Assembly (NCBI GenBank): GCA_039714075.1
Contig: JBDLKA010000058.1
Location: 1-22,386 of the forward strand
Reading direction: 5' to 3'
DNA length: 22,386 nt
From: Candidatus Krumholzibacteriota bacterium
Lineage (GTDB): Bacteria; Krumholzibacteriota; Krumholzibacteriia; LZORAL124-64-63
Both the position numbers and the translations under genes were made by a program. The stretch's first letter is position 1. Each line of letters begins with the position of its first letter. Below the pieces are notes generated by a model that had not been told where the DNA came from, did no database searches, and worked only from the letters and a program-made list of their open reading frames with translations. Of this stretch, positions 2,329 through 17,888 are shown one piece after another.

Positions 2329-4020
2329 GTGACCGCACGGAAATCTTTCAGATGCTGCGGATTGGTCCGGACCCCGGTGCGGGTCCGTACCTGCCTGTGG
2401 TTGCTGGGGCATGTCCTGCTGGTGCTGTCAGCTTTGGGGTTGGCGGGGTGCGGACCTGATGACAAGGAGACCGAGACGGGAACGCCGGCGACGGACCTGG
2501 CACCTGTTCCCGGGGGCACGGCCGTGGTGGCCCTTGACATGGATCCCGAAGTCCTGAATCCCCTGATCTATTCTTCATCCACCGCGGGCCTGGTTTACTC
2601 CGAACTGCACGACGGCTTGACCGAGATGGGGGATGATCTCCTTCATTATCCCCGTATCGCTACGGGTTGGGAGGTGGCCCCGGACAGCCTGTCGGTCACC
2701 TATCATCTGCGGCCCTGGCGCTGGTCCGATGGCGTGCCCCTGACGGCGTTCGACGTGGTGACGTCATTCGGTCTCTACAAGGATCCGGTCGTGGCCAGTC
2801 CGCGCCGGGGCAAATACCGCGATGTCCGGGCCGCGGTGGCCTTGGATTCCGCCACGGTCAGGTACGAACTGTCACGGCCCCTGCCTGATCTGCTGCGGCG
2901 AACATGGCATCATATCCTGCCCGGTCATCTGGTCGGTCACCTGGACCCGGCCGAAATCCGCAAATGGGAATTGAACCACCGGCCTCTTTCCTCGGGAGAA
3001 TTTCTGCTGGAAGACTGGGCCCACAATCGTTCCCTGTCGATGGTTCGCAACCCCGCCTACCCGGGCAGGGCGGCCCTGCTGGACCGGGTGGTCTTTCGGA
3101 TCCTTCCGGAGCAGAACGCGCGGCTGGTGGCCCTGGAAACCGGGGAAGTCGACTTTGTGGACAATATTCCTCCGGACGCCGTCCGCATCCTGGAACAAAC
3201 GGGCCGGGTGCGGATCGCCGCGACTGGTGGGCGGCGGTTCTATTATCTGCAATGGAATTTTACCAACCCCCTGTTCGCCTCGGCGCAGGTGCGCAAGGCC
3301 CTGTCCCTGGCCATCGACCGGAACCGGATGATTGAAACCCTTCTGCTGGGATACGGCCGGCCCGCCATCGGTCCTATTCCTCCGGCGCTCTGGAATCATC
3401 ACCGGGACATGAAACCCGATCCCTACGATCCCGCCCAGGCCCGCCGGTTGCTGGCGGATGCCGGGTGGGAGGATACCGACGGGGACGGCGTTCTGGACAG
3501 GGATGGAACGCCTTTCCGTTTCGAGATTCTTACCAAGCAGGGGGATCCCGTGCGGGAAAGCGGGTCGGTAATATTGCGGGAGAACCTCCGGGAAGTAGGG
3601 GTGGAGGTAACGATTCTGGCCATGGAACTCGCCGCGGGCCTGGACCGACTGCGGGCTGGACGATTCGACACCTACTTCGGCCGGTTGAACGCGAACCTCT
3701 ATGGTGACCCGTCCGCAGTAATCAAATCCACGGCAGTCGAGGAATTCAACAACGGCCGTTTTGCCAATCCGCTGGTGGATTCGCTCCTGACGGTTGCTCT
3801 GCGTATCCCGGATCGTGGGGATGCCCTGCCGCTGTGGCTGGAAATCCAGGAAACGCTTGCGCAGGACCCTCCGGCCGCCTATCTCTTCTACCCGGAAAAC
3901 CTGATCGGAATCGGGGAGAGGCTGCGGGATGTGCGCCCCCATCTCCTGTCTCCGGTCAACAACCTGGCCGAATGGTGGATTGCTCCTTCCGACAGGAAAT
4001 ACAAGACCGATTCCCGGTAA
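2329..4020 (+). CDS. ABC transporter substrate-binding lipoprotein, family 5 (OppA/DppA/AppA-like)
   Basis: Hydrophobic signal with lipobox LAG-C. Family 5 motifs: DPEVLNP, LRP..WSDGVPLTAFDV, PLSSGEF, LETGEVD, VRKALSLAIDR, YDPAQARRLLADAGW.DTDGDG. The start codon (GTG 2329) is uncertain. Confidence 0.92.
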   Translation: MTARKSFRCCGLVRTPVRVRTCLWLLGHVLLVLSALGLAGCGPDDKETETGTPATDLAPVPGGTAVVALDMDPEVLNPLIYSSSTAGLVYSELHDGLTEMGDDLLHYPRIATGWEVAPDSLSVTYHLRPWRWSDGVPLTAFDVVTSFGLYKDPVVASPRRGKYRDVRAAVALDSATVRYELSRPLPDLLRRTWHHILPGHLVGHLDPAEIRKWELNHRPLSSGEFLLEDWAHNRSLSMVRNPAYPGRAALLDRVVFRILPEQNARLVALETGEVDFVDNIPPDAVRILEQTGRVRIAATGGRRFYYLQWNFTNPLFASAQVRKALSLAIDRNRMIETLLLGYGRPAIGPIPPALWNHHRDMKPDPYDPAQARRLLADAGWEDTDGDGVLDRDGTPFRFEILTKQGDPVRESGSVILRENLREVGVEVTILAMELAAGLDRLRAGRFDTYFGRLNANLYGDPSAVIKSTAVEEFNNGRFANPLVDSLLTVALRIPDRGDALPLWLEIQETLAQDPPAAYLFYPENLIGIGERLRDVRPHLLSPVNNLAEWWIAPSDRKYKTDSR

Positions 4021-4041
4021 CATCCGACTTTGTCCAGGGTG

Positions 4042-4070
4042 TTGTCTAATCTTCACTTGTTACATAAATT
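4042..4070 (+). promoter_or_regulatory. Putative sigma70-type promoter
   Basis: TTGTCT (4042-4047), 17 nt, TAAATT (4065-4070) in an AT-rich intergenic gap. Confidence 0.5.
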
Positions 4071-4078
4071 TAAGTGAC

Positions 4079-5746
4079 ATGAAGCAGGTAACCGTAAATA
4101 TCACCAAAGGGACCGCGGCGGCATGCTGGAGCACGGTCGGGGCGCTCTTCTGCGTATCCCTTCTTTTGCTCCAGGTTTTTGCCGGTTGTTCCAGCAGCAC
4201 TGATCCTGAAGAAGGTGATAAGCCGGCGCCGACAATCGATTTTTTCCCCGTCGGCAAGGGCCAGTCCCTGAAACTCGATGAGACCATGGATTTTGCCGTC
4301 TCCAAAACCGGGGACGGCGTTTTGTCCGTGAATTGGTACCGGGGGGGACTCCCGGTCAGCCAGGATACATCCTACACCTATGTCCCCGAACAGGTGGGTC
4401 GCGACACTCTCCGGGTCGGTGCTTTGGTCGGGGCGGTCCGCGACACCTATTACTGGGTGCTTACCGTCGAGGAGGAAGCATCGGTCGTTCCCCCGGAGGT
4501 CGAAGGGATCCGGGTGCTTCCGGGTCCCGATCCCGCCGACGTCGAACTCTGGTGGACCCGGGTTACCGACGCCAACTTCCCGCTGGTTGAATACCTGGTG
4601 GCCATCAGTTACACCGGGCCCATCACGGAAGCCAACTGGGATCAGGCGACGATTCTGGACCGAATCGTGCCGGTCCCGGACCAGATCTTCTACACTCAAA
4701 TCTACACCGAGGCCCAGGACGGAATGAGGCCGGGAGAAACTGCCTGGTTCGCAGTGCGTGTCGTCGATGACAAGCAGCAGTTGTCGCCTCTTACGAGCAG
4801 CTTCCTGCATGATATTACCTGGCCCTGGTATCTGGGCGGGTATGTTTATGACGACGTCGGCCTGCCCTTGCTGGGCGTCATCCTCGACTCCAGCGAGGGT
4901 GGCTACTCTTCCAATACCGATGCCGACGGGTATTTTCTTTTCGACCAACCATTCCGGAATATCGACGCGATTCGGATCGGGACCAATTCGCCGTCCTGGT
5001 ACAATTTCGTGACGGATCCCATTTCGGTGGACCAGGACACGACGTTTACGGATATTACCCTGATCACCCGGTACGTTCTGGATGAAACCTGTTACGGAAG
5101 TGATTTTCTCGAGTACCTGAGGGATGTTACCAGGACCAGGGATGCCGGCGGTCCGCCCGACGATTCCAGGTTGATGACCTGGGACCAGTATCCTGTTTCC
5201 GTTTTTATTCCCGCGGGTCTGAACGATGCGGGCATCGACATGGAAGAGTGTTGCCGCCTTGCCATGGCATTCTGGGACTCCACCATGAGTTTCGATGCGG
5301 CGGGGTTGGGCATCACCGAGACGGATTATTTCGTGCGAACAACCGACGAGGCCGCTGCGGATATCGTATTCGTGTTTGATGATCAACCTGCTCTTAAATA
5401 CGGGGAGACAAGTTTGCTTCTTCCGGATGGCTTGGACGACCATCTGGGCTCTGCTTTCCCGGAAAAAATGCAAATATATATCAATACCACAGACGCCCTA
5501 TGGAATTCGTCCCTCATCCAGGGTGTGGCTCTGCATGAGTTTGGACATTCCCTGGGGATTTATTCGCATCCCATTCAGTGTACCAATACGGATTACCTCA
5601 TGTTGTTGTCCCCAGGCGGTCTCGGAGCCATGGACAGGGCAGATCCTGTCCATCTTGACGAACGCCGCGCAGTGCGAACAATTCGAAACCTACCCTTGGG
5701 TGTCCAGATGTCTGATTTCACCGCGGGGTTGATCCAATTCAGATAA
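4079..5746 (+). CDS. Multi-domain lipoprotein with a C-terminal metzincin/matrixin-like zinc metalloprotease domain (555 aa)
   Basis: ATG 4079 followed by a signal peptide and lipobox FAG-C. Ig/FN3-like and carboxypeptidase-regulatory-like segments (GYVYDDVGLPLLGV...TDADGYF). HEFGHSLGIYSH zinc motif at 5534-5569 and a downstream Met-turn-like YLM. The ORF-track start at 3929 overlaps the upstream gene and is unlikely. Confidence 0.8.
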   Translation: MKQVTVNITKGTAAACWSTVGALFCVSLLLLQVFAGCSSSTDPEEGDKPAPTIDFFPVGKGQSLKLDETMDFAVSKTGDGVLSVNWYRGGLPVSQDTSYTYVPEQVGRDTLRVGALVGAVRDTYYWVLTVEEEASVVPPEVEGIRVLPGPDPADVELWWTRVTDANFPLVEYLVAISYTGPITEANWDQATILDRIVPVPDQIFYTQIYTEAQDGMRPGETAWFAVRVVDDKQQLSPLTSSFLHDITWPWYLGGYVYDDVGLPLLGVILDSSEGGYSSNTDADGYFLFDQPFRNIDAIRIGTNSPSWYNFVTDPISVDQDTTFTDITLITRYVLDETCYGSDFLEYLRDVTRTRDAGGPPDDSRLMTWDQYPVSVFIPAGLNDAGIDMEECCRLAMAFWDSTMSFDAAGLGITETDYFVRTTDEAAADIVFVFDDQPALKYGETSLLLPDGLDDHLGSAFPEKMQIYINTTDALWNSSLIQGVALHEFGHSLGIYSHPIQCTNTDYLMLLSPGGLGAMDRADPVHLDERRAVRTIRNLPLGVQMSDFTAGLIQFR

Positions 5747-5789
5747 CGTCGCATGGGGGCGTGGTAACATCCGCACCCTGCGGCATGAA

Positions 5790-5818
5790 TTGACATGTTT
5801 ATTACTTCAATCTAGGCT
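5790..5818 (+). promoter_or_regulatory. Strong sigma70-type promoter
   Basis: Perfect TTGACA (5790-5795), 17-nt AT-rich spacer, TAGGCT (5813-5818). Confidence 0.7.
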
Positions 5819-5890
5819 GAGGCCAAGTCGAAACGGCCGGGAGGAATCCGGATGTCGGCAGGACCTCATTGCTTGCCACGGGAGGCGATC

Positions 5891-6385
5891 ATGCCACGGA
5901 ACAAGTCATCCCTTCTTAATGATCTCAGCACGTCGGATCTGAAGCGTCTTTTGGCCGCCCGGGAACGGATCGATGTCCTGGAAACGGAAAAGTCCAGATT
6001 GGTGAAGGAGTTGGCCAAGATCGACAGTGAACTTGCGAAGCTCATGCGCGGTGCTTCCGCCAAGAGCGCGGGTGTCCGGAAAAAAGTGACCAAAAAGAAG
6101 GCGGCCGGGAAAAAGACGGGCAAGAAGAAGGTGGCCAGGAAGAAGGTGGCCAAGAAGGTTGCCGCCGGCTCCGCGGGCGCGGCGAAAATGAAACTCGAAG
6201 ATGTCATCGTGGCCGTGATCAGGAAGAAACGTTCCCCGATCGCTTTCCAGGATTTGAAGGCCCGGATCGTCAAAGGCAAGCTGTTCAAGACCAAAAGTGG
6301 GAACTTCGACAATGTCCTGCGCCGGACGCTGTCGACCAGCAGGATGGTCAAGAGGGTGGGAAGGGGCATCTACGACGTGGCCTGA
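5891..6385 (+). CDS. Small basic putative DNA-binding / nucleoid-associated protein (coiled coil + histone H1-like Lys-rich linker + winged-helix-like C-terminus), 164 aa
   Basis: SD GGAGG at 5881 and ATG 5891 (alternative in-frame ATG at 5852). Heptad-like N-terminus; KKVTKKKAAGKKTGKKKVARKKVAKK linker; C-terminal LEDVIVAVI...IAFQDLKARI...NFDNVLRRTL...VKRVGRGIY. Has its own promoter and terminator. Confidence 0.8.
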   Translation: MPRNKSSLLNDLSTSDLKRLLAARERIDVLETEKSRLVKELAKIDSELAKLMRGASAKSAGVRKKVTKKKAAGKKTGKKKVARKKVAKKVAAGSAGAAKMKLEDVIVAVIRKKRSPIAFQDLKARIVKGKLFKTKSGNFDNVLRRTLSTSRMVKRVGRGIYDVA

Positions 6386-6407
6386 AGAAGGCCCGCAACG
6401 ATTCGCC

Positions 6408-6435
6408 AAGCCCCGGCAGCCGCCGGGGCTTTTTT
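6408..6435 (+). terminator. Rho-independent terminator between convergent genes
   Basis: AAGCCCCGGC-AGCC-GCCGGGGCTT followed by TTTT. A second hairpin, CCCCGGG-TCAA-CCCGGGG (6444-6461), overlaps the HIT stop codon. Confidence 0.85.
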
Positions 6436-6450
6436 AATGGAAGCCCCGGG

Positions 6451-6795
6451 TCAACCCGGGGGCCATCCCAGATGCCGGCCCCCGAGGAGGTGCAGGTGCA
6501 GGTGGCCGACCGTCTGACCGCCGTCGGAACCGCTGTTGATGACGAACCGGTACCCCGCCTCGGCGAGACCTTCGCCGGCGGCGATGCCAGCGGCCGTGAG
6601 CATGAGTTCTCCGGCCAGGTCGCTGTCCGGACTTCCCAATTCCGTCAGGCCGGCGATGTGCCGGCGGGGGATCACCAGGATATGGGTGGGCGCCTTGGGG
6701 TCGATGTCGCGGAAGGCCAGGAATTTTTCATCGCTGTACACCTGGTCGCATGGTATTTTGCCGGCGGCGATATCACAGAAAAGACAGGGTTCCAT
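6451..6795 (-). CDS. hinT: Histidine triad (HIT) nucleotide-binding protein, Hint/HinT family (114 aa)
   Basis: MEPCLFCDIAAG..., AFRDIDPKAPTHILVIP, GGQTVGHLHLHLLGGR.LGWPPG. SD-like GGAAGGA precedes ATG 6795. Confidence 0.95.
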   Translation of the reverse strand: MEPCLFCDIAAGKIPCDQVYSDEKFLAFRDIDPKAPTHILVIPRRHIAGLTELGSPDSDLAGELMLTAAGIAAGEGLAEAGYRFVINSGSDGGQTVGHLHLHLLGGRHLGWPPG

Positions 6796-6848
6796 TTTTT
6801 TCCTTCCCGGTGGTTGATAAACGGCCGGACGTCGGTGAGAGTCAGAAA

Positions 6849-6875
6849 AAACTAGCACAGCGGCCATGTCGTCAA
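6849..6875 (-). promoter_or_regulatory. Possible promoter for the HIT gene (extended -10)
   Basis: On the - strand: TTGACG, 15 nt, then TAGTTT preceded by TGc. The spacer is short. Confidence 0.3.
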
Positions 6876-6888
6876 CAAGGAGGGTTTG

Positions 6889-7860
6889 GTGGGCGGGTCC
6901 AGGGATTCAGGAAAACCTCGCGTTCTGGTGGTTGGGTATAACGCCTTCGATATTACCGTCCCCGTACGGGATTTCCCCGCACCGGATCAGAAATGCGAGG
7001 TGTCCCGTCTGATTACCGGAGGCGGCGGACCCGGCGCCACGGCCGCCCTTGCCCTGGCCAGGCTGGGAGCCGAAGTCAAACTCATGACTCCCCTGACCGA
7101 CGATATCTACGGGCAGCTTCAACGCCGGGAGCTTGAGGACGGAGGGGTGGACCTTACCCCGAGTCCGACCATCAACGGCCACCAAAGTCCCCTGGCCGTA
7201 ATCCTGGTGGATGAAGAGCGGCCCCGGCGGACCATCTTCTGGACGCGCGGCGATGTTCCTCATCTCTCCCTGGGTCAAGTTCCCCCGGCAGTACTTGATG
7301 GCATTGATTTGCTCTACGTGGACGGACATGAACCGGAGGTGTCGATCCACCTGGCGCAATTGGCGGCCGCGCGTGGCCTGCCGGTGGTGATGGACGCCGG
7401 ATCGGTACGGGAACGTTCCGCGGAACTGATCGCTTGTTGCACGGATGTGGTCAGCTCCCGCGGATTCGCCCCGGCCCTGACCGGGCGAAAGGCACCCCTG
7501 GAGGCGTTGCAAGCGCTGCGGGGGATGGGCCCCCTATGGGTAGCCATGACCTTCGGGGGCGACGGGAGCATCGGGCTGGATGGGAACAGGATCATCACCA
7601 TGCCCGCCTTCGAGGTTCCGGTCACAGATACGACCGGAGCAGGTGATGCCTTTCATGCCGGGTACGCTTTCGCCCGGGCAAGGGGCGAAGGCCTCGGACC
7701 GTGTCTCGAGTGGGGCAGCGCCGTCGCCGGGCTGAAATGCGGGGACTGGGGCGGGCGCCGGGGGTTGCCGGATCTCACCGCCGTCCTCGATCTGCTGGAA
7801 ACCGGCCGCCGGTGTTCCACTGCCCCGCTGCAGGAATATTTGCCGTCCGCAGGCGACTGA
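6889..7860 (+). CDS. PfkB/ribokinase-family carbohydrate kinase
   Basis: GGGGPGATAALALARLGA and DTTGAGDAFHAG signatures. SD AAGGAGG (6877-6883) before GTG 6889 (TTG 6886 is an alternative). The N-terminal motif resembles the YihV/sulfofructose kinase type, but the substrate cannot be determined from sequence. Confidence 0.92.
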   Translation: MGGSRDSGKPRVLVVGYNAFDITVPVRDFPAPDQKCEVSRLITGGGGPGATAALALARLGAEVKLMTPLTDDIYGQLQRRELEDGGVDLTPSPTINGHQSPLAVILVDEERPRRTIFWTRGDVPHLSLGQVPPAVLDGIDLLYVDGHEPEVSIHLAQLAAARGLPVVMDAGSVRERSAELIACCTDVVSSRGFAPALTGRKAPLEALQALRGMGPLWVAMTFGGDGSIGLDGNRIITMPAFEVPVTDTTGAGDAFHAGYAFARARGEGLGPCLEWGSAVAGLKCGDWGGRRGLPDLTAVLDLLETGRRCSTAPLQEYLPSAGD

Positions 7861-7908
7861 AAGCTCCTTTTGAATCGATCTTGGGAACCCATCCAATTTT
7901 TCATAAAT

Positions 7909-7943
7909 ATTCGCTGGACTTTCGCCTGGTTTTCGTCTAATTT
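7909..7943 (+). promoter_or_regulatory. lexA promoter with three 11-bp-phased TTCG direct repeats (candidate LexA operator)
   Basis: TTCG at 7910, 7921 and 7932, overlapping TGGACT (7915-7920), 17 nt, TAATTT (7938-7943). Confidence 0.6.
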
Positions 7944-8002
7944 GTCAATCAGATGGTATGAAGGGCCGGGTGGCCCTGGGCCGCATAGCGCAGGAGGCGA
8001 TC

Positions 8003-12721: not shown

Positions 12722-13891
12722 TTGGCCGAACACAAGATCATGAGCACTTTGATGCGCCCCTTTTTCAAAAAAGGGAAGGCGGGCTCCTTTACCGTGCCCC
12801 GGGCGTTGACGGACTCCTCGCGAATCCTGTGCATCGACTGCGGCGAGTTGAGTGAGTTCCTGTTCCATATTCCCCTGCTGACGGCCATCCGCCACCGGTA
12901 TCCCGGTTCCAAAATGGATTTCCTGGTGCCCGAGGTCCACGCACCGTTGGTGATCCCCAGCGGCCTGGCCCGCCAGTGCATGATCTACAAGGAGGGCCAG
13001 CTCAATCCCTGGCGCCCGGCTTTCGGATCACTTTTGCGCAAACTCGGTGCGGGAAACTACGATGTGGCCCTGGTCATGTCCTATTCCCCGCAACCGAAAC
13101 TGGAACTCGCGGCGCTGGCCAGCGGCGCTTCCCTGCGGTTCGGTCCCTCGCACAAGGAAGCCTGGCCGGGGGTGAATTTCGAAATGCGTCCCGGCAAGGA
13201 CGATGACGGTTATCTGGGGGACAGGTTGAAGTCGGCCGCCCCCTTCCTCGGTTTTGACCCCGAGGAGTTGAACACCCGCTGGCCTCTGCCCCTGGAAAAG
13301 CTCCGGCAGATGGCGCAGCAGGTCCATTTCCACAAACCCAACCCCGACCAGATGCTGATCGGTGTGGATCCCGGCATCGGCAAGTCGGGGCACGGTTTCG
13401 CCCTGGAGAATATCCAGTTCCTGGTCCGGCAGTTGTCCAGCCAACTGTCCTGCAAGATCATGCCCCTGGGGTATCCCGTGGGCAGCGATCGCCTGGAAAA
13501 ATTCGAAGCCAGCCTTTCCGAAGTGCCGGTCGGATTGCAGCGGGACACCCTGCTGGAGATGATCCTGCTGCTGGCCCAGTGCGACCTTTTCGTGGCCGGC
13601 AACACTGATTTCTTTCATTTCGCGGTGGCTCAGGGAGTGCCGGTGATCGGACTTTTCGCCAAAAACGACGGGCCCCAGTGGATGCCCCGCGGCCGGCCGC
13701 GGGCCAGGGTCATTCCCGTCACCAAAGGGGAAAAGGTTGATATCGAAACCCTCATGGAAGCCGTCGAAGGGGTGACCGAAGGTCGGACCAGTACGGCGTC
13801 GACGGTGATCACCACCCCGCTGCCGGGCGGCGGTGCTTCTTCCGGGGCCGGGGTTCTCCCTCCCGTCGAAGACGCGCCAAGTCATGATTGA
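12722..13891 (+). CDS. Glycosyltransferase family 9-like protein with degenerate motifs
   Basis: GT9-like layout (PLLTAIRHRYPGSKMDFLV, LRKL..GNYDVAL, LLAQCDLFVAG, GVPVIGLF), but GD is replaced by SE and DSGxxH by NTDFFH. TTG start with SD GAGG; ATG 12740 is an alternative. Confidence 0.75.
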   Translation: MAEHKIMSTLMRPFFKKGKAGSFTVPRALTDSSRILCIDCGELSEFLFHIPLLTAIRHRYPGSKMDFLVPEVHAPLVIPSGLARQCMIYKEGQLNPWRPAFGSLLRKLGAGNYDVALVMSYSPQPKLELAALASGASLRFGPSHKEAWPGVNFEMRPGKDDDGYLGDRLKSAAPFLGFDPEELNTRWPLPLEKLRQMAQQVHFHKPNPDQMLIGVDPGIGKSGHGFALENIQFLVRQLSSQLSCKIMPLGYPVGSDRLEKFEASLSEVPVGLQRDTLLEMILLLAQCDLFVAGNTDFFHFAVAQGVPVIGLFAKNDGPQWMPRGRPRARVIPVTKGEKVDIETLMEAVEGVTEGRTSTASTVITTPLPGGGASSGAGVLPPVEDAPSHD

Positions 13892-15011
13892 TTCTCCCGC
13901 GACACGGATGCCCCTGCGACTGCTGGTCCTGGCTCCCAACTGGTTGGGCGATGTCGTCATGGCCACCCCCCTGTTGTCTTTTCTCCACCGCAACAAGGAT
14001 GTGGTCCGTGAAACCCTCGGCCGCCCGCTGACCCTTGGGCTGGGTGTGCGGAGCGCCTGGGTGGACCTGTTCCGGGATGATCACAGGATTGATGAACTGC
14101 TGGTCCTTGAAAGAGGCGGGCGCCATGCCGGCCTGGGGGGAGCCTTCCGCCTGGCGAAGTCCATGAAGCAGGGTGGTTACGACGCCGTCATTCTCGGACC
14201 GCCTTCGTTGCGGACCGGACTGGCCGCCTGGCTTTCGGGGATTCCCTGCAGGGTGGGATACCGGGCCGACGGCCGTGCTCTGTTTTTGAATAGGGGGGTG
14301 ACTCCCCGCCGGCGGGGCAGCATCCACTACTCCCGCGAGATGGTTCATTTGGGATCGGTCTGGCTGGAAAGTCTTGGTTTGTCCCCGGATAACCTTCAGG
14401 ACGAACAGGGGGCCTGCTCCCTGCCGGGCTGCGAATCCCTCCGACCGGCGAACCTGGGCGCCGCCGGGCCTGTTTGGGCGGTCGCTCCGGGCACAACCTA
14501 TGGGGAAGCCAAAACCTGGCCGGTCGCACGCCTGGCGGAATTCATCCAACTGGCGGCAAAGCAGGCCGGGGCCCGGTTTGTTTTTCTGGGGGATGCCGCC
14601 GCCCGGGGATTCACCGCCAGCCTGAAGGAACAGGTCCCCGGGGACTGGAGCGAAGACGCCCAGGGTGATGCCTCCCTGATCGACCTGACGGGGAAAACCG
14701 GTTTGACCGCCGCGGTGGAGGTCCTCAAGGCAGCTCGGGTGTTTGTCGGGAACGACAGCGGACTCATGCATCTGGCCGCCGCTCTGGGCGTGCCCACCAT
14801 CGGGGTGTTCGGCTCTTCCAACCCTGACTGGACGGCGCCGCTCGGACCCCAAACCCGGGCGGTTTTCCCGGAGGGATTTCCCTGTCGCCCCTGCTACCGG
14901 AAAACCTGCAACCAGGATACCTTCTGCCTGGAAACCGTTGCGGCCGGGACCGTGCTGGCTGCGGTTCTTGATCTCGTCGGTGATGGCCGGGCCATGCGCG
15001 GAGGTGTTTGA
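13884..15011 (+). CDS. waaF: Lipopolysaccharide heptosyltransferase II (WaaF-like, GT9), 375 aa
   Basis: APNWLGDVVMATP, APGTTYGEAKTWP, DLTGKTGL, GNDSGLMHLAAALGVPTIGVFGSSNP, CRPC. The start overlaps the upstream stop (ATGATTGA). Confidence 0.88.
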   Translation: MIDSPATRMPLRLLVLAPNWLGDVVMATPLLSFLHRNKDVVRETLGRPLTLGLGVRSAWVDLFRDDHRIDELLVLERGGRHAGLGGAFRLAKSMKQGGYDAVILGPPSLRTGLAAWLSGIPCRVGYRADGRALFLNRGVTPRRRGSIHYSREMVHLGSVWLESLGLSPDNLQDEQGACSLPGCESLRPANLGAAGPVWAVAPGTTYGEAKTWPVARLAEFIQLAAKQAGARFVFLGDAAARGFTASLKEQVPGDWSEDAQGDASLIDLTGKTGLTAAVEVLKAARVFVGNDSGLMHLAAALGVPTIGVFGSSNPDWTAPLGPQTRAVFPEGFPCRPCYRKTCNQDTFCLETVAAGTVLAAVLDLVGDGRAMRGGV

Positions 15012-15622
15012 TGGCCGTCTGGAAACGTTGCCTTCCCGGTGAATCGTCCGGTCTTCGTCCCGTCCTGTTTCTCGACCGGGACGGGGTGGTGATCCGGGAT
15101 CGTGATTACCTGAGCGATCCGGACCAGGTCGAGTTGATCCCCGGTGTTGCGGAAACCATGAAGGCCGCAACATCCGCGGGTTATCTGCTTGTCGGGATTT
15201 CCAACCAGTCGGGCCTGGGGCGGAACTTGTTCACCATGCGCGAACTGACTGCGGTCATGGAAAGGCTCGAGGAGATCCTGGCCGCCAGCGGCACGGGATT
15301 CGACGGTTTCTATTACTGTCCGCACGCTCCCGAAGATCAATGCACATGCCGCAAGCCCGGGACGGGATTGTTGGATGAGGTCGCGGAAACCTGCCGGTGG
15401 GACGTCGGCCGAAGCTGGGTCGTGGGGGACAAGGCCAGTGATGTCGCGCTGGCGCGTGCCGGCGGGATGGGTGGGGTTCTGGTCCGCACCGGGAATGGCC
15501 GGGCCAACGAAAATGAAGTCGGCCGCATGGCCGTTGACGATTCCAGAATCCTGATCGCCGCCGACCTGCCCGCGGCCTTTGCCGCCCTGCGCCTGGCCGA
15601 ATCACAGGACCCGGACCGTTGA
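15011..15622 (+). CDS. gmhB: D-glycero-D-manno-heptose 1,7-bisphosphate phosphatase (HAD IIIA)
   Basis: FLDRDGV, SNQSG, YYCPHAP..CTCRKP, VGDKASDV. TGATG coupling with waaF and SD GGAGG. Confidence 0.92.
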   Translation: MAVWKRCLPGESSGLRPVLFLDRDGVVIRDRDYLSDPDQVELIPGVAETMKAATSAGYLLVGISNQSGLGRNLFTMRELTAVMERLEEILAASGTGFDGFYYCPHAPEDQCTCRKPGTGLLDEVAETCRWDVGRSWVVGDKASDVALARAGGMGGVLVRTGNGRANENEVGRMAVDDSRILIAADLPAAFAALRLAESQDPDR

Positions 15623-16794
15623 GCTGGGAGTTGGACGGCAAACCCATCAGGTCGGTTCTCCTGACCCGCCTGCGTTACCTCGGGGACATCGTGATGTCCA
15701 CCGTGCTTGTCGAAGCGTTGCGCCGCGGCGACCCCGACCTTGAAATCGGCTACCTGTGCGAGGAAGGGTTCGCCCCGGTTTTACACGGGCACACCGGCAT
15801 TGACCGTCTGCATCGGCTGCGAACCGGAAAACCGGGCCGGAACGCCGCGCGCAGGGTCAAGCAGTTATCGACGGGAGATGCCCACGGCACTCCGGGTCTC
15901 ATTCGGGATCTGAGGAGATTTCGCTACGACCTGGCTGTCGACATGTTTTTCAATCCCCGCAGTGCCTGGCTTTTGCGGTTGTCCGGCATTCCCCTGCGCA
16001 TCGGCGGCACCGACAGGCCCCGCGGCCGACTCTACAGCCATCGGGCTTTGCGCCGGGATATAGGGGAGGATCATCGCGAGTTCGATCGGATAGCGCCCGG
16101 GGGGCTCGGTGAACATCTCTGTCGGCTGGGGCCCCTGGTTCATTCGGAAACAGGAGCGGGTTTCGCGGACTGGCTGGCGACAACCTTCCGCCCCGGTGAA
16201 TTGAAGCCGGTCCTGGGTCCGGGTCGGACCGAATCAATCCCGTCCGGTCTGTTGAGCGCCCTGGGGGTGGCCCCGGGAGATCCCTATCTGCTTCTGGCGC
16301 CCTGCGCCACCTGGGTCAGCAAGGAATGGCCCCGGGCACGGTGGGGCGAACTGGTTTCGCTTCTGGTGGAAAGTCTGGAACTTAACGTTGTTGTCATGGT
16401 GGCCCCGGGGAAGGAGGATGCCTGGTCCGGTCTGGCCGAACTGATACCGCCGGGCAGGGGGGGCGTATTGCCGCCGCTGCCCCTGGACGATGCCTTGGCT
16501 GTCACCGCCTCGGCCCGGGCCCTGGTCACGGTCGATGGCGGCATCATGCACGCGGCCGTCGGATTGGATGTCCCCACCCTGGCTATTTTTGGCCCCACCG
16601 ACCCGGCCATCTGGTTTCCCTATGAAAGGCTCGGTCCTTTCCGGGTCATGGCCAGGGAACCTTATTGCCACCCCTGTGATCTGCATGAATGCCCGGCCTT
16701 CGTCTGCCTGCCCGAACTCGAGCCCGCCGAGGTCCGGCGTTCGCTGGCCGCCCTGCTGGAAGGGGAGATACGAACAGAAGGGGAGGCCACGTGA
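15619..16794 (+). CDS. Glycosyltransferase family 9 (heptosyltransferase-like)
   Basis: RLRYLGDIVM, YDLAVD, SKEWP, DGGIMHAAVGLDVPTLAIFGPTDP, CHPC. TTGA overlap with the gmhB stop. Confidence 0.9.
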   Translation: MSWELDGKPIRSVLLTRLRYLGDIVMSTVLVEALRRGDPDLEIGYLCEEGFAPVLHGHTGIDRLHRLRTGKPGRNAARRVKQLSTGDAHGTPGLIRDLRRFRYDLAVDMFFNPRSAWLLRLSGIPLRIGGTDRPRGRLYSHRALRRDIGEDHREFDRIAPGGLGEHLCRLGPLVHSETGAGFADWLATTFRPGELKPVLGPGRTESIPSGLLSALGVAPGDPYLLLAPCATWVSKEWPRARWGELVSLLVESLELNVVVMVAPGKEDAWSGLAELIPPGRGGVLPPLPLDDALAVTASARALVTVDGGIMHAAVGLDVPTLAIFGPTDPAIWFPYERLGPFRVMAREPYCHPCDLHECPAFVCLPELEPAEVRRSLAALLEGEIRTEGEAT

Positions 16795-17888
16795 GCGAAA
16801 GACCTTCCTTCAGGAAAATCCTCCTGATCCGGCGCAAGGCTCTCGGCGATGTTCTGGTCAGCATGAGGGCGGTTCTGGAGGTGGCCCGGACGTGGCCCGC
16901 CGCCTCCGTCGATCTGGTCGTCGACCGTCCCTTTGCCGATCTTCTGGATGGTCTGGCGGGTCGCGCGGACCGGCCTGGGGGCTTCCGGATATTGTCCTGG
17001 CCTCCGCGGAACGGGCAATCATGGTTGAATGTTCTGCGGGGGGGGCGTTACGATCTGGTCATCGACTGGCTCGGCAGTCCGCGCACGGCCCTGTGGACCA
17101 TGTTGACCGGGGCTCCGGTGCGGGTGGGTTATGATCTGCCCCGGCGGCGATGGGCCTACAACGTCAAGGTGCCCCGCAACAGGTCCGGCCGGTGGGACCT
17201 GCGCGGATTCGCCGGGGAGGCTTTTCTCGATCCTTTGCGCAGCCTCGGGTTGGATCCGCAACCCTGGCGTGACGGTTTCGCCGGTGGCTCGACGGTGGGG
17301 GAGGCTGTTCCAGGTTCCGGTGGGTCACTCGGAAATGGTTTCAGCGGCAGCTTCAGCGGTGAATTCAGCAATTGGCTCGAAAATTGGATTTCCGGGTCCG
17401 GGGCGCCGGTCGTCATGATGATGAGTGCCACCTGGAGCGCCAAGGGGTGGCCGGCTTCCCATGCCGCGGAATTGTTCCGGGATCTTGGCCGGCGAGGAAT
17501 GAACCCCGTTCTGGTCACCGGTCCCGGTGACCGGGAGTTGGAGAAGGAATTGCGTCTGCTCTTGCCGGGAGATGCGATCGCCCCGCCCACGAACCTGTTG
17601 GAACTGGCGCATCTGCTGGAAAAGGCAAGTGTTTTCGTGGGGACCGATTGTGGTCCCCGCCATCTGGCGGCCAGCCTGGGTGTTCCCACGGTCACTCTTT
17701 TCGGCCCCACGGACCCGGTTGGTTGGAACCCGGCGGTCCCGGAACATGTTTCAGTGCGAACGGCCGAGGATTGCTCACCCTGCGACCTGGCCGACTGCCC
17801 GGTTCCCGGGCATCCCTGCATGAATGACCTCGTGCCGGGAATGGTTATGGAGGCCGTGGAACGGGTTTTGAATCCCGCTTCCCGTTGA
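16791..17888 (+). CDS. Glycosyltransferase family 9 (heptosyltransferase-like), 365 aa
   Basis: IRRKALGDVL, YDLVID, SAKGWP, DCGPRHLAASLGVPTVTLFGPTDP, CSPC. SD GGAGG and GTGA overlap at 16791. Confidence 0.9.
   Translation: MSERPSFRKILLIRRKALGDVLVSMRAVLEVARTWPAASVDLVVDRPFADLLDGLAGRADRPGGFRILSWPPRNGQSWLNVLRGGRYDLVIDWLGSPRTALWTMLTGAPVRVGYDLPRRRWAYNVKVPRNRSGRWDLRGFAGEAFLDPLRSLGLDPQPWRDGFAGGSTVGEAVPGSGGSLGNGFSGSFSGEFSNWLENWISGSGAPVVMMMSATWSAKGWPASHAAELFRDLGRRGMNPVLVTGPGDRELEKELRLLLPGDAIAPPTNLLELAHLLEKASVFVGTDCGPRHLAASLGVPTVTLFGPTDPVGWNPAVPEHVSVRTAEDCSPCDLADCPVPGHPCMNDLVPGMVMEAVERVLNPASR
17340..17387 (+). repeat. Degenerate in-frame 12-nt tandem repeat
   Basis: TTCAGCGGCAGC / TTCAGCGGTGAA / TTCAGCAATTGG / CTCGAAAATTGG, encoding FSGS-FSGE-FSNW-LENW. 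Confidence 0.55.

Follow-up and report, generated by a model that had tools for sequence, protein, structure and literature searches.

A conserved protein family of Krumholzibacteriia with a predicted coiled coil, a polycationic linker and a HARE-HTH-type winged helix: a candidate nucleoid-associated DNA binder

We analyzed a stretch of 22,386 nucleotides from a Candidatus Krumholzibacteriota bacterium (assembly GCA_039714075.1, contig JBDLKA010000058.1, positions 1 to 22,386, forward strand; hereafter, the window), with the focus on a single gene encoding a protein of 164 residues, P0001. This protein belongs to a real, conserved and previously uncharacterised family that represents a variant of the 'oligomeriser, linker, DNA binder' plan, and we favor, with a probability of roughly 0.55, its role as a multivalent nucleoid-associated (architectural) binder of chromosomal DNA with an H-NS/Rok-like layout. 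The proposed mechanism includes the following steps: (i) the N-terminal heptad helix would pair or bundle protomers, (ii) the disordered polycationic linker, resembling a histone H1 tail, would bind the DNA backbone non-specifically, (iii) the HARE-HTH winged helix would make the defined contact via its invariant helix 3 and Arg/Gly wing, and (iv) the resulting oligomer would, in the manner of H-NS, MvaT, Lsr2 and Rok, bridge DNA segments or condense them. Since each protomer would have two DNA-contacting modules and the protomers would be paired, such an oligomer would be multivalent. We only infer self-association, DNA binding, bridging and an effect on transcription for P0001. The arguments in favor of this reading are the modeled architecture with its conserved heptads, the charge, the domain family, natural forms with two winged helices, the expression signals of the gene, its inheritance and its copies on mobile DNA.

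An earlier reading of the DNA made without database searches (the sequence-only reading) had described a very basic protein of this length containing the segments LSTSDLKRLL...AKLM and VKRVGRGIY, which is the exact translation of the gene: P0001 starts with MPRNKSS, ends in RGIYDVA, has an isoelectric point of 11.2 and contains 47 lysine and arginine versus 14 aspartate and glutamate residues. The net charge of +33 is distributed over the N-terminal domain (+4), the linker (+17) and the winged helix (+12). The three-part layout proposed in that reading was borne out by the full-length AlphaFold2 model, built with an alignment of 33 sequences, and by the conservation pattern. The N-terminal part comprises a short helix (residues 5-11) followed by a long amphipathic helix (residues 14-58), with block means of the predicted local distance difference test (pLDDT) of 85-95. 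In this alignment, 8 of the 10 heptad a/d positions within residues 20-51 are occupied exclusively by L, I, V, M or F, further invariant leucines are found at positions 12, 17 and 21, and the segment with L8, L9, L12 and L17 is conserved. As modeled, such a pattern is typical of coiled coils with a hydrophobic stripe to be buried by a partner; the prediction of a two-copy complex of residues 1-60 with an alignment scored 0.24 against a mark of 0.42 and is evidence neither way.

The linker contains 17 lysine and arginine residues, not a single acidic residue and no glutamine run. Its pLDDT is below 50 at residues 59-97, and in homologues its length varies from near nothing to about 100 residues while the composition stays rich in K, R, A, T, G and P; thus, P0001 has the flexible linker expected of an H-NS-like protein. 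The C-terminal domain is the most conserved part of the protein. At residues 102-163 it is modeled as a compact helix-strand-helix-loop-helix-strand-strand unit (pLDDT ~81-92). Both alignments show no variation at S136, F139, N141, L143, R144, T146, S148, R158, G159 and Y161, and the 33-sequence alignment alone shows none at V142, R145, T149, K154 and R155; very little change is seen in helix 3 (FDNVLRRTLSTS) and in the wing (KRxGRGxY). Neither Pfam nor NCBIfam has a family for the complete architecture.

To assign the winged helix, we combined profile and structure comparisons. The best Pfam match of P0001 is the winged helix of Rok (WH_Rok, PF23159; residues 104-161, profile positions 3-58 of 58), at a sub-threshold score of 19.7 versus 27.6 bits (E 9.5e-4); P0001 itself gave no match to HARE-HTH (PF05066), HC2 or the linker-histone family in the Pfam scan. 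Among the 33 relatives, WH_Rok was matched by 14 at E<=0.01 (best E 7.2e-6), and the highest score seen, 25.8 bits for P0121, is still under the cut-off. HARE-HTH was matched by six of the 33 (best E 4.4e-9), and more distant relatives retrieved with P0001 exceed the PF05066 cut-off of 25.9 bits: P0241 (67.7), P0121 (40.7), P0126 (30.2) and P0248 (29.0). Ten of the 33 matched HC2 (PF07382) at E<=0.01 via the low-complexity linker, e.g. P0126 with 27 bits at a cut-off of 40. A profile of 24 C-terminal domains was compared by hhalign with the domains of eight relatives that pass or approach Pfam HARE-HTH, yielding a probability of 99.3% (E 1.3e-20, 69 columns). Since these relatives pass or approach PF05066 and align with such a probability, the C-terminal domain of P0001 is assigned, transitively and from sequence profiles, to the HARE-HTH superfamily as a divergent winged helix.

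The structural comparison agrees with this assignment. A model of the C-terminal domain alone (pLDDT 85.8) was compared with 48,161 PDB representatives using VIA-align with no Foldseek pre-filter, and the best 50 matches were all winged helices, which confirms the predicted fold, as anticipated by the sequence-only reading, and does not single out Rok. Forkhead, linker-histone H1 and RNA polymerase delta domains tie in the ranking, and the C-terminal domain has a winged-helix fold like that of the delta N-terminal domain. Rok ranks lower: its structure was found at Foldseek ranks 6 and 11 (E 0.078) and was not among the best 50 matches in either VIA-align search. When PDB sequences were searched with P0001, with the full-length profile and with that of the C-terminal domain, nothing was matched other than coiled coils and Lys-rich segments of low complexity, namely sigma factor tails; the best relevant match was RNA polymerase delta with E 2.4, and Rok was not matched. 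WH_Rok remains the best, though weak and sub-threshold, Pfam match, with Rok outranked in structure by forkhead, H1 and delta. The independence that the sequence-only reading considered possible for the family holds for its whole architecture and not for the DNA-binding domain, a HARE-HTH-superfamily winged helix from the broad fold group of which the domain of Rok is also a member.

The family comprises 289 proteins at E<=1e-3 in a collection clustered at 90% identity, or 202 clusters at 50% identity, and all named members are either 'hypothetical' or clearly misnamed. The 36 genome loci are mostly labelled Candidatus Krumholzibacteriia or Krumholzibacteriota, and the rest as bacterium, 'uncultured Fibrobacteraceae' and, in one case, Gemmatimonadales. 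A phylogenetic profile of homologues, a check suggested by the sequence-only reading, was obtained for 201 genomes sampled evenly across the phylum, the host genome included: a P0001 homologue was found in 67 of them. With the host genome excluded, homologues were found in its own GTDB family (64/86) and a second family (2/9), and none in the other seven families (0/105); the search with the C-domain profile gave 63/86, 2/9 and 0/105, respectively. The host genome (4.06 Mb, 92% complete) has a single copy.

The gene occupies a conserved slot, in the order FG-GAP protein, SBP_bac_5, a protein of 605 residues, the P0001 gene, HIT (on the opposite strand), PfkB, LexA and Lon. This neighborhood is conserved in 21 of 27 distinct genomes and partly in two more, and not in four loci. 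The shared slot and the family-bound occurrence indicate that the gene is vertically inherited within one family-level clade. In some genera the same slot is occupied by natural forms with two winged helices joined by an additional Lys-rich linker (P0121, P0126, L097), which is more suggestive of an architectural binder than of a classical regulator. In P0121, P0126, P0132, P0138 and L097 (G086:C19, 5959-6846), the coiled coil is followed by one winged helix and, after a long Lys-rich linker, by another.

Copies on mobile DNA had not been part of the sequence-only reading. Where a genome has several matches, one of them is the syntenic copy and the others lie elsewhere. We examined eight non-syntenic loci from four genomes and found mobile-element or defence genes at five of them: a tyrosine integrase, a large serine recombinase, IS21 IstB, a type I restriction-modification S and R pair directly upstream, and an N6/N4 methylase with a GmrSD-type nuclease. 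A gene similar to a terminase large subunit (775 residues) is present at two of the eight loci, both in one genome. In all four comparisons the paralogue loci are 7 to 19 G+C points under the syntenic locus of the same genome (55.5% and 60.4% versus 67.2%; 53.6% and 54.1% versus 72.8%). The relocated copies at L017-L019 have normal G+C and no mobile genes. In genome G017, the terminase-like genes (L089, 1483-3813; L020, 2001-4325) lie 2-4 kb upstream of a P0001 paralogue, and its low-G+C elements are probably two related prophages or phage-like islands.

Full-length relatives of 168-200 residues, 51-60% identical in the C-terminal domain, were also found on four viral contigs of IMG/VR that encode serine integrases, virion and tail proteins and an HNH nuclease; at E<=0.01, tblastn detected none in GenBank phages or PLSDB plasmids. 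A maximum-likelihood tree of 38 sequences has the syntenic copies branching in line with taxonomy. One of the viral copies is joined, with support 99/99, to the island copies from two genomes of a single genus, and the remaining viral and island copies make up long-branched clades of their own. A core chromosomal copy with diverged mobile copies has been described for H-NS (plasmid and island copies), MvaT and Rok/sRok, according to the part of PMC6936261 available to us. The split between the chromosomal core and mobile copies fits a chromatin-level role and is the strongest new argument for it, although it is no proof of silencing.

A narrower form of the architectural reading, in which P0001 would be a xenogeneic silencer whose oligomers nucleate and spread over AT-rich acquired DNA, with the mobile copies serving as 'stealth' or anti-silencing paralogues, has perhaps one chance in four. 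It would account for the mobile-element, recombinase, restriction-modification and terminase-like genes at the paralogue loci, for the lower G+C content of the DNA around the paralogues and for the separation of island and viral copies from the vertical chromosomal clade; mobile elements, however, carry DNA-binding proteins other than silencers too. The layout is that of H-NS-like proteins as outlined in the same part of PMC6936261. The host genome has 62% G+C and, at 92% completeness, contains no Histone_HNS, Lsr2 or WH_Rok match above the cut-off, in line with the earlier reading of a lineage with no silencer known to be described. The weak WH_Rok match points in the same direction, as would N138, R155 and R158, if they sit where Rok has its DNA-contacting residues (see below). 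On the other side, AT preference and repression are putative for P0001, its N-terminal domain is not acidic, two separate dimerisation sites are not evident, a polycation takes the place of the neutral Q-rich linker of Rok, and forkhead, H1 and delta all match the domain better in structure than Rok does.

A different explanation, which we consider improbable, is that P0001 is a sequence-specific dimeric transcription regulator, e.g. an autoregulator, whose basic linker only raises affinity. It would be consistent with the near-invariance of helix 3 and the wing, and with an AT-rich element, GGTAACAT, just upstream of the -35 box, which could be an UP element or an operator. Of the 27 loci examined, 23 have TTGAC, and nine of these carry the exact GGTAAYAT motif or its complement no more than 75 nucleotides upstream of the -35 box. 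The motif is rare genome-wide (65 sites in 4.06 Mb) and is palindromic in places (GGTAATATTACC-like in L024, GTAATATTAC in L006). Seven of these sites fall within 3.4 kb around the P0001 gene, and this cluster is not kept at the locus L029 of the same genus, which has one site. Twin-domain variants and highly variable linkers would also be unusual among classical regulators, and no target gene is co-transcribed or divergently paired with the P0001 gene.

The seven GGTAAYAT sites of the window (3567+, 4016+, 4812-, 5052-, 5124-, 5763+ and 6950-) lie within positions 3567-6957, compared with 0.24 expected from window shuffles, and no other 3.5-kb span of the genome has more than two. Three of them are in-frame D[IV]T codons of the gene for the 605-residue protein. 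A relation of the promoter element to the LexA box was considered and dropped, as the lexA upstream regions share a different motif, repeated TTTCG. These regions (window 7880-7957; L015 and L027-L032) have a conserved TTTTCGCTGGACTTTCGCC-N4-6-TTTCGCCTAA arrangement with three TTTCG repeats, a candidate promoter plus LexA box for Krumholzibacteriota.

Least probable among the alternatives, and in our view hardly likely, is that P0001 acts mainly off duplex DNA, either as a delta-like RNA polymerase factor or as a polycation coating RNA, ribosomes or polyphosphate, or that it reads modified DNA. Against a delta-like role, delta is a Firmicutes protein with an acidic, not basic, tail. HARE-HTH domains have been proposed, in the accessible part of PMC11037411, to read modified bases. 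A DNA methyltransferase gene is found near the homologue in three of the four viral loci, at most ~0.5 kb downstream in two of them and ~5 kb away in the third, and an N6/N4 methylase is encoded at one island locus; no methyltransferase gene adjoins the chromosomal copy. The methyltransferase genes near the phage and island copies (L098, 2524-4182; L100, 8534-9676; L101, 13339-14331; L090, 528-1526) hint at a link between the winged helix and DNA modification.

Several observations weigh against P0001 as an architectural DNA binder. Three HU/IHF genes are present in the genome anyway. None of the eight sampled genomes of genus g2 (84-100% complete) yielded the P0001 gene, and in the three g2 loci fetched the gene for the 605-residue protein abuts HIT with no space for it; it is therefore not indispensable, at least one genus doing without it. 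Helix 3 is closer to invariance than a non-specific binder would strictly need, and HARE-HTH domains can bind proteins, as delta sits on RNA polymerase in the matched entries. The abundance that the sequence-only reading had expected found no support in codon usage: the codon adaptation index of the gene is 0.54, the 42nd percentile of 1953 long open reading frames, with six ribosomal-protein and EF-G genes and one fragment of a TypA/BipA-like GTPase gene as the reference set. However, the three HU/IHF genes of the same genome themselves score 0.57-0.60, and the index thus has little discriminating power here. Among the sequencing runs listed as containing this stretch there is no RNA run, only two DNA runs from a single study, of which one may be the source; the host lineage is uncultivated.

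The gene is monocistronic, in line with the stand-alone unit described earlier, and is flanked by the gene for the 605-residue protein, which has no Pfam family, and by the convergent HIT-family gene (Table 1). An alternative in-frame ATG at 5852 would give 177 residues. The alignment of the upstream DNA of 12 orthologues shows a conserved GGAGG-type Shine-Dalgarno sequence before the MPR codon, and the start is placed there rather than at this ATG. Both the GGAGG ribosome-binding site and the strong terminator of the sequence-only reading were recovered. Its perfect TTGACA promoter proved accurate for the -35 box only: TTGAC[AG]-N17-TAnnnT precedes all 12 closest orthologues, but the -10 box matches the consensus at just 3 of 6 positions, because of which the promoter was missed by the consensus scanner. 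TTGAC occurs less than 260 nucleotides from the start in 23 of 27 loci, where some distant occurrences may be due to chance.

Table 1. Positions of the P0001 gene, its expression signals and its encoded domains in the window.
Feature	Position	Strand	Basis
AT-rich element GGTAACAT just upstream of the -35 box	5763..5770	+	recurs in orthologues
-35 box TTGACA	5790..5795	+	direct reading; TTGAC[AG] in 12/12 closest orthologue upstream regions
-10 box TAGGCT, 17 nucleotides after the -35 box	5813..5818	+	TAnnnT at the same spacing in orthologues
Shine-Dalgarno sequence GGGAGG, 5 nucleotides before ATG	5880..5885	+	GGAGG-like run kept before the MPR start
Coding sequence of P0001, 164 residues plus stop	5891..6385	+	translation, homologue searches
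Residues 1-58, short helix and long amphipathic heptad helix; putative coiled-coil self-association module	5891..6064	+	AlphaFold2 pLDDT block means 85-95
Residues 59-99, disordered Lys/Ala/Val/Gly-rich linker, net +17	6065..6187	+	pLDDT <50 for 59-97
Residues 100-164, HARE-HTH-type winged helix (H1-b-H2-loop-H3-b-b)	6188..6382	+	fold, hhalign, invariant residues
Intrinsic terminator: stem 6408-6431 of 10 pairs (8 G-C), 4-nucleotide loop, then T run	6408..6435	+	terminator scan

Two other loci of the window were noted. The gene for the 605-residue protein (3929-5746, with the true start probably near 4079) is syntenic with the P0001 gene in most genomes. Its product has an N-terminal hydrophobic segment and a HEFGHSLG motif similar to a zinc-metalloprotease site, and may be a secreted or lipoprotein protease. 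Positions 12722-17888 include four consecutive genes for family-9 glycosyltransferases (heptosyltransferases) with an HAD phosphatase gene between them, followed by DUF3108 and sugar transferase genes, and this region looks like a lipopolysaccharide core biosynthesis block.

Our literature searches found no paper on such a nucleoid-associated HARE-HTH family, and the papers on Krumholzibacteriota among the matches listed were all ecological by title and abstract. To our knowledge, only a handful of lineages, all of them cultivated, have known nucleoid proteins and silencers. H-NS, MvaT, Lsr2 and Rok are each a separate evolutionary invention, and P0001 adds a conserved candidate from a metagenome-only phylum, with different parts and the same chromosomal/mobile split. 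If P0001 binds and bridges DNA, the bacterial convergence on the 'oligomeriser, linker, DNA binder' plan would be extended, and an H1-like tail would be seen combined with an H1-like fold in one bacterial protein. The same would suggest a function for a large set of 'hypothetical' HARE-HTH proteins, mostly of Planctomycetota and Verrucomicrobiota, the phyla in which an Atlas look-up, taken as a lead only, placed most of the hypothetical proteins of similar build. More speculatively, and at rather long odds, the family could be a fifth, independently assembled silencer-type family, the H-NS analogue of one whole family within Krumholzibacteriia. Temperate phages and islands would then carry diverged versions, frequently next to DNA methyltransferases, with which to evade or subvert host silencing, and the winged helix might sense DNA shape or methylation.

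Comparison of P0001 with known DNA-binding proteins revealed both shared and distinct features. In proteins of the HARE-HTH family (PF05066), such as RNA polymerase delta, ASXL and the N-terminal domains of restriction enzymes, those known from bacteria have the domain fused to an acidic tail or a nuclease, whereas the domain of P0001 is C-terminal, behind a coiled coil and a polycation. Linker histones H1/H5 have the reverse order of parts and no sequence match to P0001. The HC2 matches that would relate P0001 relatives to the H1-like chlamydial Hc1 and Hc2 are of low complexity and below the cut-off; the bacterial H1-like proteins that we know of have neither a winged helix nor a coiled coil.

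H-NS, MvaT and Lsr2 are small proteins with mobile paralogues that share with P0001 the plan of an oligomerisation domain, a flexible basic linker and a DNA-binding domain. The P0001 linker is much longer and more highly charged, the DNA-binding fold of this class is unrelated to its winged helix, and the two dimerisation sites of these proteins are not evident in P0001, which has one heptad helix. Their N-terminal domain is acidic, as stated in the portion of PMC6936261 that we consulted, and this charge asymmetry is absent from P0001.

Rok of Bacillus subtilis, along with its short plasmid form sRok, has the same succession of parts, with helices for self-association at the N-terminus, then a linker, and a winged helix at the C-terminus. 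Its paralogues on mobile elements, such as sRok on pLS20, are a further likeness, and its neutral, Q-rich linker a difference from the +17 polycation of P0001 (both as given in the available part of PMC6936261). The match to Rok is below the Pfam gathering score and weak in Foldseek rank, and Rok comes from a different phylum. Rok reads the minor groove by N154 and T156, with which helix 3 begins, and by R174 of the wing, with the help of K171, according to the accessible text of PMC6212790. In P0001, helix 3 is capped by the almost invariant N138, and 17 and 20 residues further on, at the wing, the invariant R155 and R158 follow; by spacing alone, N138, R155 and R158 may correspond to N154, K171 and R174 of Rok, with D140 replacing T156. 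Judged by its sequence features, P0001 differs from each member of the H-NS/MvaT/Lsr2/Rok class in fold or score threshold, linker type or charge asymmetry, but it is this class that the protein most resembles in the way it would work.

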